Assembly (NCBI GenBank): GCA_944390965.1
Contig: CALXRW010000003.1
Coordinates: forward strand, 1,131 to 65,130
DNA from: an uncultured Clostridia bacterium
Lineage (GTDB): Bacteria > Bacillota > Clostridia > TANB77 > CAG-508
Length of the DNA stretch: 64,000 bases
Direction of reading: 5' to 3'
How positions within the stretch are numbered: position 1 is the first letter of the stretch; every line of letters begins with the position of its first letter. The position numbers were made by a program, and so were the translations under genes. Below the pieces are notes generated by a model that saw nothing but the letters and a program-made list of their open reading frames with translations, ran no database searches and was not told the origin of the DNA. Below, piece by piece: positions 30,254-37,417 of this stretch.

Positions 30254-31282
30254 ATGTCAACATATACAATACAATCAGGAGATACCTTAAGTGGAATAGC
30301 ATCTAGATATGGTACAACAGTAGATACCCTTATGGGATTAAATCCATATATTACTAATAGAAATCTTATATATGCCGGAAATACATTAAATTTGCCTGGA
30401 GCACAGCAATCAGCTCCAGCAACAACACAAAACACAACCCCACAAAAAACAACACAACAATTGGCAGAGGAGTATGCAAAAGCACAAACTGCTAATTCTG
30501 GAAATGAAACACAAGCTTTGCTAAATCAATATGAAAAAATTGCCGAACAACAGAAGCAGGCATTACAACAAAATAAACAGTTAGCGGAAACACAAGTAAA
30601 TTCACAAAGAGATGATGTATTGCAAACGTACAATGACAATGCAAGACAAGCATATATTAATTCTATGTTAGGCAAGAAGTCTGTTGAACAGGAATTATCT
30701 CAAGCAGGACTAAATACAAGCGGTTTAGTTGGAAGTGCATATGCCAATATTGAGAATGCATATGGCAACAATTTAAGTGGGTTGCAAAAATCAAGAGATA
30801 CTTCAATAAACAATATAAACAAACAACTAAATGAGATTCAATTACAATATGCGATACAAGAAAGCGAATTACTTTCTGACATAGAAAACGCGAAATTAGA
30901 AATACAAAAATATGGAGATCAACTTGCTTATCAGAAATATCAAGACGCATTAAACAACTATTTGAATTTTGCAAATTATGATTCACAACAACAACAAATC
31001 GCACAGGAACAAGCGAACTGGCAGAAAGAATTTGAACTTGCATTACAAGAACTTGAACTTGCAAAAAAAAAAGCTAGCAGTTCGGGTAGTGGAAGCAGTC
31101 GCAGTAGTAGCAGTAGTAGTGTTAGCAGTGCGTATAGCTTTCCAGAAGACAGTTCATTGTATACTATTTCATCTAACAATACTGGTTCAAGTAATAAATC
31201 AAGCAGTAGCAAAAAAGAAAGGGAACCATTACAAAATCCTACAGAATGGTTATTAAACGGAAAATTAAATATTGGGAGATAG
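30254..31282 (+). CDS. LysM-domain protein with a Q-rich coiled coil and a Ser-rich tail.
   Basis: The LysM domain is [28 protein letters not shown]...GNTLNLP. Confidence 0.7.
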
Positions 31283-31294
31283 AGGAAGGGAAAA

Positions 31295-34200: not shown

Positions 34201-37200
34201 CTACAAAGGTACAGGAACAGGACAAACCGTACAAGAAGTAAAGATTGCACCGACTGCTAATAATAACAATCTGGAAACAGGAAAATATACACAAGATCAG
34301 GAAAACCAAAAAAAACAAAAGATTGAAGAAGATAAAATAGCGCAAATATTAGAGAAACCACCAGAAAAAACGAAAGAAAAAGACAGAAAATGGGCAATAT
34401 TAAAAGCTAATTTAGTAGATAAAGGAATTGTATTTGAAGAACTATCCCATAAAACTAAAAATAGGGAATTGCAAGGAAAATGGGATTATACTTTAACGGC
34501 TAATGCAAGAGGACAAAATGCTATTGGACAAGCTAGATATGAAATGAACCCTAAAACAAAAACAGAGAAGCAGATAAGTAAAAGCTTAGAGACCATAAGA
34601 GCAGAAGTGGGAGGCAAAGTTAGTGATTTTCAACAATATATGTATCATCAATTAAATATTGATAGAATGACACTAGAAGAAAGGTTCGCTGGTGATACTG
34701 GGATAAATTATGAAAGAAAAAATACTATTAAAAACAAACCTGTTTTTGGAGATACTGTAACAGCTGAAGTGTCAAGAAAAATTGTAGAAGATTATGAAAA
34801 GAAATATCCACAGTTTAAAGAATGGGCAAGAGATGTATACGATTTTAACAATGCTAACAAACAAGAATTGGTAAGAAATGGTGTTATTTCACAAGAATTA
34901 TCTGATAGGTTAGGAGAAATGTATCCTCATTATGTACCGATAAAAAGAGTTAATTCAAAAGGAAATGTAATTAAAGTACCGTTAGATACTAATAGAACTG
35001 GAATAAATGCACCTTTGGCAAGAGCTAAGGGTGGAAATTCAGATATTCAACCATTATTTCAAACCATGGCAGATAGAACGTTGCAGACATATAGAGCAAG
35101 TGCAAGAAATAATTTCGGTGTAGAACTAATGAACACATTAAATACAATACAAAATGTTCAAAAAACAGACATTGATGCAATATTAGAAGAAATTGGAAAT
35201 ACAGATAGTGATACGGAACTTTTAAAAGAAGGAAAAAATGGAGAAAATCCAACATTTACGGTTTTTGATAATGGAGAAAAAGTTACTTTTGAAATAACAA
35301 AAGATATGTATGATGCATTAAAACCAGTAAATGATAGTTCAATATTATCAAAAACGTTTAAAACGCCAAATAAGATTAGTAATATTAGAAGGGGTGTTTT
35401 AACAGAATACAATCCGCTATTCTTAGTTACTAATGCAGTAAAAGATGCACAAGACGTATTAATAAATTCTCAACATTCATTAAAAACATATTCAAAATTT
35501 CCAGAAGCGTATGCACAGATCATATCAAAAGGTTACTGGTATAAAGAATACATTAGAAATGGAGGAGAACAAAATAGCTATTTTAAAGACGGAAATTTTG
35601 AAAGTGATAAAAAAGTAAATAGGGCAAAAAAAGCCGTAATGATACCTTTAGAGAAAATAAGCAATATCAACAACGTAATTGAAATGGCTCCAAGGTTGGC
35701 GGAATATATTGCTAGTAGAGAGAAAGGGAGAAGTGTAGAAACTTCAATGTTAGATGCGTCCAGAGTGACAACAAACTTTAAGGCGGGAGGAGACATTGTT
35801 AAATTCATAAATAGAAATGGCGGAACATTTCTAAATGCTTCTGTACAAGGTGCATCTCAACAAGTAAGGAATATAGTTGAAGCACATACAAAAGGATTAA
35901 AAGGATATGCAGTATTAGCAACTAAATATGCTATAGCAGGAATACCAGCTTTAATACTAAATAATTTGATTTGGAATGATGACGAAGACTATGATGAATT
36001 GCAAGACTACGTAAAAGACAACTATTATATTATAGGAAAATATGGCGACGGGAAATTTATAAGAATACCGAAAGGAAGGACTGTTTCTGTAATTCAAAAA
36101 ATAGTAAATAATGTATCAGAATATGTTAATAAAGATAAAGAAATAAATATTGATAATTTAGCAAAAGACTTCTGGGAAAGTATAAGTTTCGCATCAGACA
36201 ATTTGGCTCCGAACAATCCGATAGACAACAATGTAATATCTCCAATAATTCAAGTAATAACAAACAAAAGTTGGTATGGAGAGGATATAGTTCCATCTAG
36301 ATTACAAGATAAACCTAATGCAGAACAATATGACGAAACAATAGATAGTTTCAGCATTTGGTTAGGAGAAAAATTAAATCAAAGTCCATATAAAATTAAT
36401 TATTTATTAGATCAATATGGTGGTGGAATTGCCGATGTAGTCTTGCCATCACTGACAAAGCAAGCTGAAAATAACATGGTTGAAGATAAATTTACAACTG
36501 ATTCTGTAATCAAGAGTAAATATCCAGGAGAATTTTATACGAAACTAGACGAATTAACCGTAAAAAATAATAGTGATAATGCAACAGATGAGGACAAAAT
36601 AAAATATAAGTATTTTTCTTCTAAATCAAAAGAAATGAGTGACTTATATAAGGAAAAGAGAGAGGTACAAAGTTCAGATTTGTCTGATGAAGAAAAGAAA
36701 AAACAAATAAGAACGATTCAAAACAAAATAAATCAAATTGCAAAAACAGGACTTGAACAAGTTGACAACTTGGAGGTATCTAAGGATACAGCCCAGATAG
36801 GAACAGAACAGTATTATAAAGACGGGAAAGGAAAATGGAATATTTTAGATGAAGAAGAAACACAAAAAAATTCTAATATTCCAATTTCTACTTATGCAGA
36901 TTATAAACAAAAAGTATATATGCAAACTCAACAAAAGAAACAATTAGGGGAATTAAAAGAAAATCAAGACTTAAAAGATAAAGATAAGATCCAAATTTTA
37001 CTAGATTCCAATTATCCGTACACAGAAAAACAATCCTTGTATGAAAATTATATTTTAGATAATCAAGATAAAAAATATCCGATAATAAAAGAGGCCGGCG
37101 TAAATATACAAGAGTATCTAAAATATAAGCTACAAGATTTTTCAGCAGACAAAAAAGATGATGGAACAGTAAGTGGAAAAAGCATATCTGGTAGTAGTAA

Positions 37201-37417
37201 ACAAAAAAGATATAATTATATAATGTCAATGAAAAATCTGTCAAACACACAGAAATTAATACTCTTTGCATTGGAATATGAACCAAGTAGCAACAATGAG
37301 AAACAGAGAATAGTTAACTTCGTGACAAATTTGGACAAATCTAATGAGGAAAAATTAGAAATAATAGGTCAATTCAAAGGTGTTACAGTATATAAAAATG
37401 GAACATTTACTTATTAG
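31295..37417 (+). CDS. Giant 2040-aa protein containing an N-terminal coiled coil, a Gly-rich hydrophobic region, two zincin-like HExxH motifs and a large C-terminal region. Function unknown; possibly a virion-delivered or polyvalent protein.
   Basis: Uninterrupted 6.1-kb ORF behind RBS gaggaaggg. Motifs are VITHELTHDLEG and LIHEIQHAIQH. A terminator follows. Confidence 0.6.
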   Translation: MGFRDLIEEELKKKEQERQIEEQKRQITQEISIANEQRKNNILPTSRERRSSEILPRASERRTYLVREKKKLSKEVSENPNARPAGNESTFEGFINGVAQNPNPLVSTVTDIMATRVADEIEKDPVNGGVKSGLINFLGGGLEWGTGLGSLVVNPLGEAEKKLGEVFNNQDLYNAGVATQNRWKALNEITGIGSKITEKTDNETVKTINQVSRALGNMAPSIGLSVLTGGASAGASTGNKVTQYLAKNSGRITQALGVAGNEMTNTLNEDNSNFGQATLTGLAKGGLEYATEGIFGGNILSKGTSLDDLVAKGISSKVKSNVGQMLLSKGYEFGGEIAEEIISDTGGNLVDKIVNGKDMPNLKEWWENSGETAKTTFLTTAVLQALGLGGGTYNDVKQLNLNKQQEAEAQSWISEAENIIKNTSEEQNNQKRDQISRNDIVRQMNEESLPVKNEQFRYANRAYEESARKYNIDTNNETVKSINRVAQERGINVTYNADLFDNTNTNAIWRSNADGTREVILNPNADTNKTLESVITHELTHDLEGTNEYNELRDLILNYNENKTDYAEARKSLEELYSKVYDRNSIEFETLVDNEAVADILGNKLGNQEFVNNLTIEKPTLGRKIYNWVVDKLNKINKATGYKSEKIFWTDVKNKFENAYKQENSNNVNKDLYSIAGKKGMQNLVKSNPSNNITLEQLYNRAKQLQRNGLSNEEIRQQTNWFQDKNGDWKFEFSDKDMTLKNNIILQSGKEYKLGDILEHDTLFIAYPELINYSVEISKSLKPNGSFNSKNNIISINSELITNQKRLEATLIHEIQHAIQHIENFEGGSSSKKSKLAYYNSLGEIEASDTKSRFLNEKYKNKDIYNIAPESSKLQPQHKDLNKYLKNRNLLDKVKDSVYNYFNINNKNGKSNHEYDIEQNYTENKDKNNYTKLEEIEKKSDRKEYGIELEKFRYSINKNNSWQTYLDKNYKGTGTGQTVQEVKIAPTANNNNLETGKYTQDQENQKKQKIEEDKIAQILEKPPEKTKEKDRKWAILKANLVDKGIVFEELSHKTKNRELQGKWDYTLTANARGQNAIGQARYEMNPKTKTEKQISKSLETIRAEVGGKVSDFQQYMYHQLNIDRMTLEERFAGDTGINYERKNTIKNKPVFGDTVTAEVSRKIVEDYEKKYPQFKEWARDVYDFNNANKQELVRNGVISQELSDRLGEMYPHYVPIKRVNSKGNVIKVPLDTNRTGINAPLARAKGGNSDIQPLFQTMADRTLQTYRASARNNFGVELMNTLNTIQNVQKTDIDAILEEIGNTDSDTELLKEGKNGENPTFTVFDNGEKVTFEITKDMYDALKPVNDSSILSKTFKTPNKISNIRRGVLTEYNPLFLVTNAVKDAQDVLINSQHSLKTYSKFPEAYAQIISKGYWYKEYIRNGGEQNSYFKDGNFESDKKVNRAKKAVMIPLEKISNINNVIEMAPRLAEYIASREKGRSVETSMLDASRVTTNFKAGGDIVKFINRNGGTFLNASVQGASQQVRNIVEAHTKGLKGYAVLATKYAIAGIPALILNNLIWNDDEDYDELQDYVKDNYYIIGKYGDGKFIRIPKGRTVSVIQKIVNNVSEYVNKDKEINIDNLAKDFWESISFASDNLAPNNPIDNNVISPIIQVITNKSWYGEDIVPSRLQDKPNAEQYDETIDSFSIWLGEKLNQSPYKINYLLDQYGGGIADVVLPSLTKQAENNMVEDKFTTDSVIKSKYPGEFYTKLDELTVKNNSDNATDEDKIKYKYFSSKSKEMSDLYKEKREVQSSDLSDEEKKKQIRTIQNKINQIAKTGLEQVDNLEVSKDTAQIGTEQYYKDGKGKWNILDEEETQKNSNIPISTYADYKQKVYMQTQQKKQLGELKENQDLKDKDKIQILLDSNYPYTEKQSLYENYILDNQDKKYPIIKEAGVNIQEYLKYKLQDFSADKKDDGTVSGKSISGSSKQKRYNYIMSMKNLSNTQKLILFALEYEPSSNNEKQRIVNFVTNLDKSNEEKLEIIGQFKGVTVYKNGTFTY

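Follow-up and report, generated by a model that had tools for sequence, protein, structure and literature searches.

A 2,040-residue protein with two zincin domains in a Clostridia prophage is a phage-type polyvalent protein and probably an ejection/pilot protein

The window analysed here, a stretch of 64,000 nt, comes from an uncultured Clostridia bacterium (TANB77; CAG-508; assembly GCA_944390965.1, contig CALXRW010000003.1, positions 1,131-65,130 of the forward strand). Behind the lysis genes of a prophage it carries two reading frames on the same (+) strand, spaced by 12 nt and bracketed by hairpins:

30206..30240 (approximate), + strand: hairpin between the CHAP endolysin gene and the partner gene (fold −13.1 kcal/mol, z −4.1)
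30254..31282, + strand: partner gene, 342 aa (ORF call with a good RBS)
31295..37417, + strand: giant polyvalent protein gene, 2040 aa, ~232 kDa (ORF call with a good RBS)
37494..37515, + strand: intrinsic terminator 3′ of the giant gene (nine-bp GC-rich stem and T-run; −17.2 kcal/mol, z −3.6)

A sequence-only reading of this DNA had reported both ORFs and both flanking hairpins, as well as a LysM domain, a Gly-rich region and two HExxH motifs in the products, and all of these were borne out. Its interpretation survives in part: an ejected internal-virion or polyvalent protein stands, while a tape measure, a moron toxin and a specific peptidoglycan peptidase do not. The 2,040-aa product is an ordinary member of a known phage polyvalent protein class, the giant multi-domain proteins of short-tailed phages that are probably carried in the capsid and injected with the DNA.

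The fold energy of the endolysin-side hairpin was reached by none of 200 shuffles. A simple terminator scan, which recovered the second hairpin, missed this one, probably because the T-run is partly paired into the stem; the element is probably a partial terminator or attenuator. The diverged relative L004 has hairpins at both equivalent positions, with sequences different from those in the window. The gap between the endolysin gene and the pair is 45 nt, which leaves no room for a promoter, and the pair is therefore probably expressed by read-through. The proposal that the two genes form a separate unit is thus half right: they are a conserved pair bracketed by hairpins, but probably without transcription of their own. 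By lowering read-through, the upstream hairpin would probably cause the low-copy partner and the giant protein to be made in smaller amounts than the products of the preceding genes. The location after the lysis genes and the terminator-like hairpin weakens the prediction, drawn from homologues, that the pair is expressed late.

The partner protein consists of a LysM domain, a linker, a Q-rich helical core and a Ser-rich tail, much as had been described from its sequence:

30263..30397, + strand: LysM domain, aa 4-48 (Pfam PF01476, E 1.1e-13)
30464..31063, + strand: conserved core, aa 71-270 (motifs aGLxxSGxxxS...NxYxN and AYQKxxDxxxxxxW)
31064..31228, + strand: Ser-rich low-complexity tail, aa 271-325 (25 Ser in 55 residues, 45%)

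The core contains 32 Q in 200 residues. LysM is an optional add-on: the partners in loci L006 and L007 lack it, as do several relatives at 65-72% core identity. The LysM-less L006 and L007 proteins belong with the partner family by hhalign (probability 97.4%, E 1e-11, against E 0.2 for the reversed-sequence control), and in each of the seven Clostridia-type loci the giant gene is directly preceded by a partner-family gene. Sequence analysis detected no signal peptide or transmembrane segment in either protein.

The giant protein is a mosaic of a constant N-module, a constant C-terminal domain and two exchangeable interior blocks:

31295..31594, + strand: E/R/K-rich helical leader, aa 1-100 (by composition; AF2 helix at 3-39, low to moderate confidence)
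31595..32644, + strand: Gly-/small-residue-rich helical region, aa 101-450, first half of the conserved N-module
32663..33289, + strand: zincin-1, gluzincin-type MPTase, aa 457-665 (H537, E538, H541, E595; N522 and Y577 also invariant)
33283..34148, + strand: exchangeable cassette, aa 664-951, comprising LPD23, zincin-2 and a disordered linker (blastn against L003)
33308..33319, + strand: junction motif 1, L-Y-S-I, aa 672-675, directly following zincin-1
33362..33517, + strand: LPD23 domain, aa 690-741 (Pfam PF18838, E 6.6e-12, 45.5 bits, cutoff 27)
33611..33874, + strand: zincin-2, SprT-like MPTase, ~aa 773-860 (H813, E814, H817; conserved E823/E826 and E844/E846)
34151..34162, + strand: junction motif 2, R-Y-S-I, aa 953-956, in a disordered linker where the C1 block begins
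34376..36784, + strand: C1 block, ~aa 1028-1830, a large helical unit including LPD38 (AF2 model of the C-half, pLDDT)
35981..36487, + strand: LPD38 Pfam core, aa 1563-1731 (PF18857, E 1.4e-33, 117 bits, cutoff 27)
36785..37414, + strand: C2 block, aa 1831-2040, retained more widely than any other C-terminal domain of the family (pLDDT ~90)

The N-terminus had been read as a K/E coiled coil followed by a Gly-rich hydrophobic stretch of ~300 aa. The charged leader and the Gly-rich region (14-16 Gly per 100 residues over aa 101-400) are there, but the latter is not a classical transmembrane region: hydropathy is too low, peaking at just 1.0, and aa 101-450 hold 32 small-xxx-small motifs. AF2 predicts this region as helical, but with pLDDT below 50. 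It matched no family in Pfam or PHROG and is conserved over 1,041 cluster representatives.

The C-terminal region, which had been taken to lack an obvious family, matches Pfam LPD38 and PHROG 14770. The AF2 model of the C-half is confident (mean pLDDT 81.8, pTM 0.71), and such confident globular domains make up half of the whole protein. C1, for which no relative was found in the PDB, has tblastn matches in 354 phage records and is common to the giant proteins of Page, Stx, Bcep22-like, Vibrio and Ralstonia podoviruses. In some family members it is swapped for unrelated sequence, so that C1 is not a universal packaging device within the family. C2 matched no Pfam family; it is kept in 96 of 120 homologues, including those in which an unrelated block replaces C1. 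In BFVD, the fold of the C-terminal ~1,000 aa is found in many giant polyvalent proteins of phages, and it recurs in chunks of giant viral proteins named for other domains, such as lytic transglycosylase, RelA/SpoT or methylase. The other interior block is exchangeable too: in L003, ~97% identical by blastn on both sides of the cassette, 866 bp of the window give way, cleanly and in-frame, to 1,637 bp of unrelated sequence that codes for MuF_C and ART-PolyVal, with the DNA breakpoint at 34148/34149.

The HExxH motifs, at aa 537 and aa 813, occur in a protein with 13 His in all, for which ~0.007 such motifs are expected by chance, and no homologue carrying the corresponding module departs from them (64/64 and 28/28). 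Both cores consist of three strands, the HExxH helix and a later helix with an invariant Glu. In zincin-1, which has no Pfam family and no PDB sequence match, AF2 places the three strands and the HExxH helix at pLDDT 75-85; zincin-2 is modelled at 85-95 and scores 28.9 bits against Pfam SprT-like (cutoff 25.6). The similar lead-in of the two sites that had been noticed by eye is real, the two zincin profiles aligning with an hhalign probability of 86% (E 5e-6). Both are minimal gluzincins of the MPTase/SprT type and would act as proteases. Zincins of this kind are linked to the cleavage of proteins and not of muropeptides, and the metallopeptidases that attack peptidoglycan usually belong to the M23 or LAS groups, which lack HExxH.

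The type of the two sites speaks against their earlier assignment as specific peptidoglycan peptidases, and likewise against the broader idea that the pair is chiefly a virion-associated wall-degrading device, with LysM targeting peptidoglycan and the HExxH sites cutting stem peptides or cross-bridges. Podoviruses of Gram-positive hosts do require a wall-degrading activity at entry, the partner does carry LysM, the authors of the phi24B study propose peptidoglycan degradation by the gp47 metallopeptidase, and the BFVD matches of the C-half include giants whose names refer to an LT_GEWL lytic transglycosylase domain. However, LysM is dispensable in close partner relatives, and ART/RNase cassettes replace zincin-2 in the ~97%-identical phage, so zincin-2 is not essential for entry. 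We consider a wall-degrading device quite improbable.

With a P22-type portal and, as sole cultured relatives, Page-like phages that are podophages by electron microscopy, the prophage classes as a Page-like podovirus of Clostridia. The closest of these relatives, Bacillus phage Page, has a portal at 33% identity and a counterpart of the 611-aa structural protein (E 8e-42). The statement of the sequence-only reading that tape-measure, tube and sheath genes are missing fits the data: none of these families was matched among the ten structural-region proteins scanned. Great length and a Gly-rich helical N-terminal region would suit a tail structural protein, tape-measure-like or otherwise, from a long-tailed phage, but no part of the protein matches a tape-measure family in Pfam or PHROG, confident globular domains fill half of it, and the phage, lacking tube, sheath and chaperone genes, has podophage relatives. 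We reject this reading as effectively refuted.

The location after the lysis genes, noted as atypical for a structural gene, holds for this lineage only and is a lineage-specific rearrangement. In four relatives (L006, L007, L010, L011) the order inside the morphogenesis block is 611-like structural protein, partner, giant, and in L006 and L011 a 753-like tail protein comes next; in Page, the giant gene is the last of the structural block. According to a podovirus phylogeny (2023, Viruses, PMC10386132), internal-virion genes generally lie to the right of tubeA/tubeB and are followed by tail-fibre genes. This position, directly after the 611-aa homologue, is where internal-virion (ejection) proteins are usually encoded. 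This bears on the proposal of a moron-encoded secreted or surface toxin benefiting the lysogen, for which one could invoke that the gene lies close to the end of the prophage, has terminators on either side and neighbours a Panacea-type gene pair. Members of the family sit within morphogenesis modules, no toxin domain is present in this variant, and a signal peptide, a membrane anchor and a secretion-system context are all missing; we reject the toxin as very hard to credit.

Among characterised systems, the closest framework is that of Iyer, Burroughs, Anand, de Souza and Aravind (2017, PMC5512222), in which LPD38, LPD23 and zincin MPTases mark phage-type polyvalent proteins. The likeness extends to a giant polypeptide of many domains encoded by a (pro)phage with portal/terminase genes, phage-only LPD38, LPD23, two zincin-like MPTases and extensive shuffling of domains between relatives. 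The variant described here differs in that proteases are its only recognisable effectors, in that its N-terminal 660 aa (Gly-rich region and zincin-1) and last 200 aa have no Pfam model, and in its obligatory coiled-coil partner gene and junction motif, of which the available text makes no mention. The N4 virion RNA polymerase and P1 DdrB/DarB, likewise very large, encapsidated and equipped with zincin MPTase domains according to that text, carry polymerase, methylase or helicase domains that our protein lacks.

Of the LPD38 giants, phi24B gp47 is abundant in virions and invisible in the cryo-EM map, and an ejection role was proposed for it, as a proposal and not a demonstration (bioRxiv 10.64898/2026.04.10.717836). 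It too belongs to a short-tailed temperate phage, and C1 matches Stx-phage proteins, but only ~240 aa align, at 27% identity, and those giants have N-terminal LPD5, LPD1 and MuF-C and a Gram-negative host. JC1 gp69, the orthologue of Bcep22 gp75 and annotated as a ‘DarB-like antirestriction protein’, is virion-associated by mass spectrometry (PMC9144972). C1 aligns with these proteins (E 2e-9), and their gene, the last of the virion module, adjoins lysis genes, although they reach ~4,500 aa against 2040 aa here. The ‘DarB-like’ name, which reflects methylase/helicase domains, should not be transferred to the 2040-aa protein, in which these are absent. The PTXU04 polyvalent protein (gp25), whose knockdown abolishes plaquing even on a laboratory host, has the C-terminal fold in common with ours (E 3e-21, 910 aligned columns). 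Page gp20 is homologous over C1 (BLASTP E 2e-28), has a similar N-terminus (first K/E-rich, then rich in Gly), and is encoded right beside the lysis cassette; it differs in its length of 1,679 aa, stopping at the end of C1 without C2, and BLASTP found no match in it to zincin-1 or the LPD23/zincin-2 cassette. The homology of the partner to Page gp18 (hhalign 57%) is suggestive only; gp15 is also listed with gp20, and possibly gp18, as a Page counterpart.

The proposed functional parallel is with T7 gp14/gp15/gp16 and P22 gp7/gp20/gp16, internal virion proteins encoded after tail-tube genes and expelled as a conduit, T7 gp16 also joining an enzyme domain to a structural part. Those sets comprise three proteins rather than two, our host is Gram-positive, and no sequence or fold similarity to the pair was detectable in the T7 and P22 proteins or in any PDB entry. 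For phi29-like phages, the Gram-positive-host podoviruses that one review mentions, it reports no ejection proteins (PMC8954989).

We put at roughly two in three the probability that the giant protein is a phage-type polyvalent ejection/pilot protein of this podovirus prophage, acting with its conserved coiled-coil partner. LPD38, LPD23, the zincin MPTases and the C-terminal fold, together with relatives that are in virions or required for infection, fit this reading. It has to be weighed against a polyvalent anti-defence or host-takeover protein working in the producing or newly infected cell, either unpackaged or carried along passively without contributing to DNA delivery. Iyer et al. (PMC5512222) indeed treat polyvalent proteins mainly as conflict effectors, relatives bear ART, RNase (PBECR/MuF_C), ParB and nucleotidyltransferase cassettes, and the gene here lies outside the structural block and adjoins a toxin-antitoxin-like moron. 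Nevertheless, we think this unlikely: four related loci have the pair in the ejection-protein slot, LPD38 giants are present in virions, PTXU04 gp25 is needed even where a laboratory host is infected, and no effector besides the proteases is recognisable in this variant.

As an ejection/pilot protein, and by analogy with its homologues, the giant polypeptide would be made late, packaged within the capsid and expelled through portal and tail at infection, also carrying early-acting cargo. Together with the coiled-coil partner, the helical, Gly-rich N-module may help to build or extend a DNA conduit through the thick Gram-positive wall and the membrane, and in this lineage LysM would hold the complex on peptidoglycan. 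The zincins would cleave proteins: most likely the giant polypeptide itself at flexible junctions, or alternatively host or defence proteins. The candidate processing site is the recurrent (K/R)(Y/F)S(I/L/M/V) motif, which may be nothing more than a first strand conserved in each module. Of 114 representatives at 50% identity, 46 have junction motif 1 at the projected junction, against a background of 3.6%, an enrichment that partly reflects kinship of the sequences.

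The window carries a prophage whose left end (614-2539) has a serine recombinase of the resolvase type and a CI-like HTH/S24 repressor, and which extends to about position 39 kb; the host dcw cluster (mraZ, rsmH and a PBP) comes next. The prophage right end adjoins this cluster at 39716-47598, with DUF6320, alpha/beta hydrolase and DUF5131 genes, belonging to phage or host, lying in between. Terminase, portal, capsid and tail genes span 16.7-28.7 kb, and the late region closes with a 342-aa LysM/coiled-coil protein (the partner) and the 2,040-aa giant:

16707: terminase, first in the late region
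18315: P22-type portal, after the terminase
between portal and major capsid protein: 274-aa protein
21066: major capsid protein, then a 143-aa protein
after the 143-aa protein: structural/tail proteins of 611, 753 and 614 aa, in that order
between the 614-aa protein and the endolysin: two holin-like genes
29480-30208: CHAP endolysin, directly before the partner
30254-31282, + strand: LysM partner, 342 aa, last but one in the late region
31295-37417, + strand: giant ORF, 2,040 aa, last in the late region

The sequence-only reading had placed hairpins downstream of the endolysin and of the giant gene, and both are real: the first has a fold energy of -13.1 kcal/mol (z -4.1), and the second is a canonical terminator. 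Since hairpins of unrelated sequence occupy both equivalent positions in the related locus L004, where the blocks of the giant are 42-65% identical, the bracketing of the pair by hairpins is a conserved feature. The 45-nt gap after the endolysin is too small for a promoter, and we therefore infer that the pair is expressed late, by read-through of the upstream hairpin.

The giant is an ordinary member of a described class, the phage-type polyvalent proteins. A polyvalent effector had been among the earlier guesses, and LPD23, a SprT-like zincin and LPD38 were indeed all found; the protein also holds a second zincin and further folded blocks. The C-terminal region, previously described as lacking an obvious family, contains LPD38 with an E-value of 1.4e-33. 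The definition of LPD domains ('large polyvalent protein associated domains') comes from Iyer et al. 2017 (PMC5512222), and, like the class as characterised there, the giant combines several unrelated globular domains, LPD domains included, and is encoded in a portal/terminase prophage close to the virion genes. BLAST of 120 homologues against the giant delimited four blocks:

aa 1 to about 663: N-module, with leader, Gly-rich region and zincin-1
aa 664-951: cassette, with LPD23, zincin-2 and linker
aa 690-741: LPD23, Pfam 45.5 bits, above cutoff
aa 773-823: SprT-like zincin over the second HExxH, Pfam 28.9 bits against a cutoff of 25.6
about aa 952-1835: C1
aa 1563-1731: LPD38, Pfam 117 bits, above cutoff
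about aa 1835-2040: C2
window 33308-33319 and 34151-34162, + strand: junction motifs at the cassette boundaries

No Pfam family was found for aa 1-680, 950-1550 or 1830-2040 when eight segments were scanned at E-values up to 1. The N-module, which has 1,041 cluster representatives, and C2 both lack a Pfam family and would merit one each.

The two HExxH motifs noticed earlier stand at aa 537 and 813, whereas about 0.007 motifs would be expected by chance in a protein with 13 His. The first is invariant in 64/64 homologues that carry its module and the second in 28/28. As described in Iyer et al. (PMC5512222), the MPTase core consists of a three-stranded sheet, the HExxH helix and a second helix with a Glu ligand; such zincin-like MPTases are the commonest hub domain of the polyvalent class, a protein having between one and five of them, and more than one in about 8% of the MPTase-bearing cases. 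An AlphaFold model of giant aa 1-1000 contains the MPTase arrangement twice with good confidence (aa 457-665 and 673-905), each time with the three-stranded sheet, the HExxH helix and a later helix bearing Glu. Judged by this model, both modules fall within the structural definition of zincin-like MPTases and are predicted peptidases. Invariant residues of zincin-1 are N522, H537, E538, H541, Y577 and E595, while zincin-2 has H813, E814 and H817 along with conserved E823/E826 and E844/E846. The similarity that had been noticed in the sequence leading into both motifs also held up, as the profiles of the two zincins align (hhalign 86%, E 5e-6). Zincin-1 matched no Pfam family, either in the segment scan or when 16 zincin-1 homologues were used. 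Zincin-2, the isolated segment of which scores 24.3 bits to PF10263 (cutoff 25.6) with only 51 residues matching, is on its sequence filed as a SprT-like MPTase and not as a SprT orthologue. PDB sequence searches with the whole giant, a profile of its C-terminal half and the zincin-1 profile gave no usable match. When the 1,000-aa model of the N-half was compared with the PDB by Foldseek, low-confidence regions swamped the result, and the one hint pointed to two minimal zincins, jannalysin and selecase (probability 0.92, E about 1).

The Gly-rich region had been likened to a tape-measure protein. No TMP family in Pfam or PHROGs matches the whole giant or any segment of it, and the tail gene set is of the podovirus type; with no PHROG match to the N-module in particular, the idea was dropped. 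The Gly-rich region has no classical membrane helices and is not convincingly membrane-active. The sole strongly hydrophobic stretch of the giant lies just before LPD38 (aa 1535-1560, window 35897-35974, hydropathy 1.5). In the confident model of C1 it forms a buried helix pair and not an evident membrane anchor, although it could become membrane-inserting should C1 refold during ejection.

Only the N-module and the last 200 or so residues of the giant are constant; both interior blocks are exchanged in frame. For the cassette, the exchange is seen between prophages that are about 97% identical: the window and the related locus L003 align at that identity over 22922-33282 and 34149-37525, and in place of the 866 bp in between L003 has, in frame, 1,637 bp of unrelated sequence encoding MuF_C and ART-PolyVal. 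According to precomputed Pfam labels, from which the domain content of homologues was taken, the interior of other relatives holds ParB, PBECR3 or other domains. C2 is kept in 96 of the 120 homologues, including several in which C1 is replaced. Seven homologues (P0020, P0023, P0024, P0034, P0042, P0044 and P0055) retain the N-module and C2 with an unrelated stretch of ~750-2,000 aa at the place of C1 and LPD38. This block has no profile similarity to C1 by hhalign, which rules out a diverged C1, and may be a second, uncharacterised interior module. An exhaustive search with giant aa 100-680 returned 1,041 cluster representatives, 483 of them at E up to 1e-10; most of the best 150 of the 1,041 are 1,600-3,800 aa long, and these carry the N-module in their N-terminal third.

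A short motif stands at each boundary of the cassette, DLYSIAGKKG (aa 672) and KFRYSINKNN (aa 953), located in or beside a low-confidence linker of the AlphaFold model, and the homologue P0002 has equivalent motifs at its own module boundaries. In 118 long homologues, which are not phylogenetically independent, [KRT][YF]S[ILMV] was counted 181 times, where shuffles predict 56. Among 50%-identity representatives, likewise not phylogenetically independent, it lies within 45 residues of the projected N-module end in 46/114, compared with a 3.6% background. The enrichment is thus 3-fold overall and about 11-fold at the N-module end; of the listed N-module ends that lack the strict motif, most have a near-variant in its place. 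The domain types that follow the motif at the N-module end differ between homologues. Across the giant family (homologues P0002-P0368), then, (K/R)(Y/F)S(I/L/M/V) marks module junctions whatever domain follows. Zincin-1, which is adjacent, may process the protein at this motif; alternatively, the motif may be a recombination joint or a first strand conserved in every module.

For the portal, the only matches are Pagevirus podophages of Bacillus megaterium (33% identity, E 2e-80), and electron microscopy shows Page to be a podophage. The window's 611-aa protein has a homologue in Page gp15 (E 8e-42), and the last 670 aa of Page gp20 (1,679 aa) match giant aa 1185-1825 (E 2e-28); in Page the giant gene closes the structural block, with the holins immediately after. 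Close relatives of the window's giant gene are found in MAGs of uncultured Clostridia and Clostridium. C1 reaches further, with matches in 354 phage records (Page-like, Vibrio, Stx-converting, Bcep22-like, Ralstonia and others). Bcep22 gp75 has only this block in common with the giant; mass spectrometry shows its orthologue JC1 gp69, whose gene closes the virion module, to be virion-associated (PMC9144972). The 2,811-aa gp47 of phi24B, with LPD5, LPD1, LPD38 and MuF-C, is abundant in virions yet missing from the cryo-EM map, and its role as an encapsidated ejection protein is its authors' proposal only. PTXU04 no longer forms plaques when its 2,198-aa polyvalent protein is knocked down. By analogy with these homologues, and with the polyvalent class, the giant would most likely be packaged into the capsid and delivered with the DNA, its expulsion at infection making it a cargo-bearing ejection or pilot protein. 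No sequence or fold homology was found between it and the ejection proteins T7 gp14-16 or P22 gp7/20/16. A non-structural conflict effector is an unlikely alternative to such an ejection protein; the P1 DarB-like antirestriction proteins differ from the giant in having methyltransferase and helicase domains, none of which Pfam detects in it.

Gene order was compared in seven Clostridia-type loci. In the window, L003 and L004, the endolysin is followed by the LysM partner and the giant, while in L006, L007, L010 and L011 the pair sits within the morphogenesis block, in the order portal, 611-like protein, partner, giant. Next after the giant, L006 and L011 have a 753-like tail protein, and L007 has its lysis genes 5 kb beyond the giant. 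These orders argue that the conserved unit is the coiled-coil partner plus the giant, and that its ancestral site is directly after the 611-like gene. The position of the window's pair after the lysis genes is hence a rearrangement of its lineage and not a sign of a moron. The moron-encoded toxin considered earlier is effectively excluded. In a 2023 podovirus phylogeny (Viruses, PMC10386132), genes of internal-virion (ejection) proteins are as a rule found on the right-hand side of the tail-tube genes. The order tubeA/tubeB, ejection, tail fibre fits L006 and L011 provided that the 611-like protein is the nozzle, an identity that PDB searches with the 611-aa protein, as sequence and as profile, did not support (no usable match); the window departs from this order, its pair coming after the lysis genes.

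The LysM of the partner (aa 4-48) scores 51.3 bits against a Pfam cutoff of 20.9. The Q-rich core has true homologues in the partners of L006, L007, L010 and L011 (hhalign 97.4%, E 1e-11; E 0.2 for a reversed-sequence control), all of which lack LysM, and LysM is variably present even among partner relatives with 65-72% core identity. Homology of the partner to Page_18 is suggestive only: BLASTP gave a non-significant E of 1.2 and hhalign 57%, and the L003 partner matched at a phmmer E of 1e-6 in a database of seven sequences. That the zincins mainly degrade the cell wall is more improbable still than a conflict effector, as both zincins are of the MPTase/SprT type, a near-identical phage can dispense with zincin-2, and LysM is optional.

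In the most likely mechanism, with the pair as a cargo-bearing ejection system, the partner and the Gly-rich N-module would contribute to a conduit, the LysM would provide wall attachment in the window's lineage, and the zincins would be proteases cutting the giant polypeptide itself or host proteins. A more specific and rather doubtful version is a two-protein ejectosome particular to P22-portal podoviruses of Firmicutes. Here the partner (LysM-anchored in the window's lineage) and the Gly-rich N-module would build a conduit through the thick wall and membrane, and zincin-1 would cut in cis at the (K/R)(Y/F)S(I/L/M/V) junction just downstream of itself, so that the C-terminal blocks and an interchangeable cargo cassette would be set free inside the cell. 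The junction motif would then be both a processing site and an in-frame recombination joint, and the giant family a plug-and-play protein-injection chassis.

The polyvalent class, its signature domains, the packaging hypothesis and zincin multiplicity are already published. We found no earlier description in the literature consulted of a conserved partner gene travelling with the giant in the Clostridia/Bacillus podovirus group, of constant ends with swappable interior blocks, of a short motif marking the junctions of giants, or of a giant of a non-phi29 podovirus of Gram-positive bacteria. A review of ejection proteins (PMC8954989) reports them mainly for podoviruses of Gram-negative hosts, with none in phi29-like phages. 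Placing a 2,040-aa orphan in a described class removes the tape-measure and toxin readings, and, should packaging and processing prove true, the pair would give non-phi29 podoviruses of Gram-positive bacteria their first described ejection apparatus, and would offer a natural scaffold with which to deliver protein cargo into Clostridia.

The terminator of the giant gene is directly followed by a gene with a SocA/Panacea antitoxin domain (37569-38096, Pfam E 3.8e-14), overlapping by 14 nt a gene for a 248-aa coiled-coil protein of no family with C-terminal hydrophobic helices (38083-38829). The two (37569-38829) are a candidate PanA-type toxin-antitoxin moron at the prophage end, and are missing from the roughly 97%-identical prophage L003. 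Upstream of the pair, endolysin aa 175-242 (30002-30205) share 48% identity with the C-terminal end of an Amidase_2 endolysin of a distantly related phage (L007, 22461-22664); these C-terminal 68 aa are probably a common cell-wall-binding module that lacks a Pfam family. In L004 (17190-22146), and also in the related locus L005, integrase, reverse transcriptase (RVT_1), SieB and DUF6076 genes lie just 3' of the giant gene, and may form a superinfection-exclusion or defence island at the prophage end.
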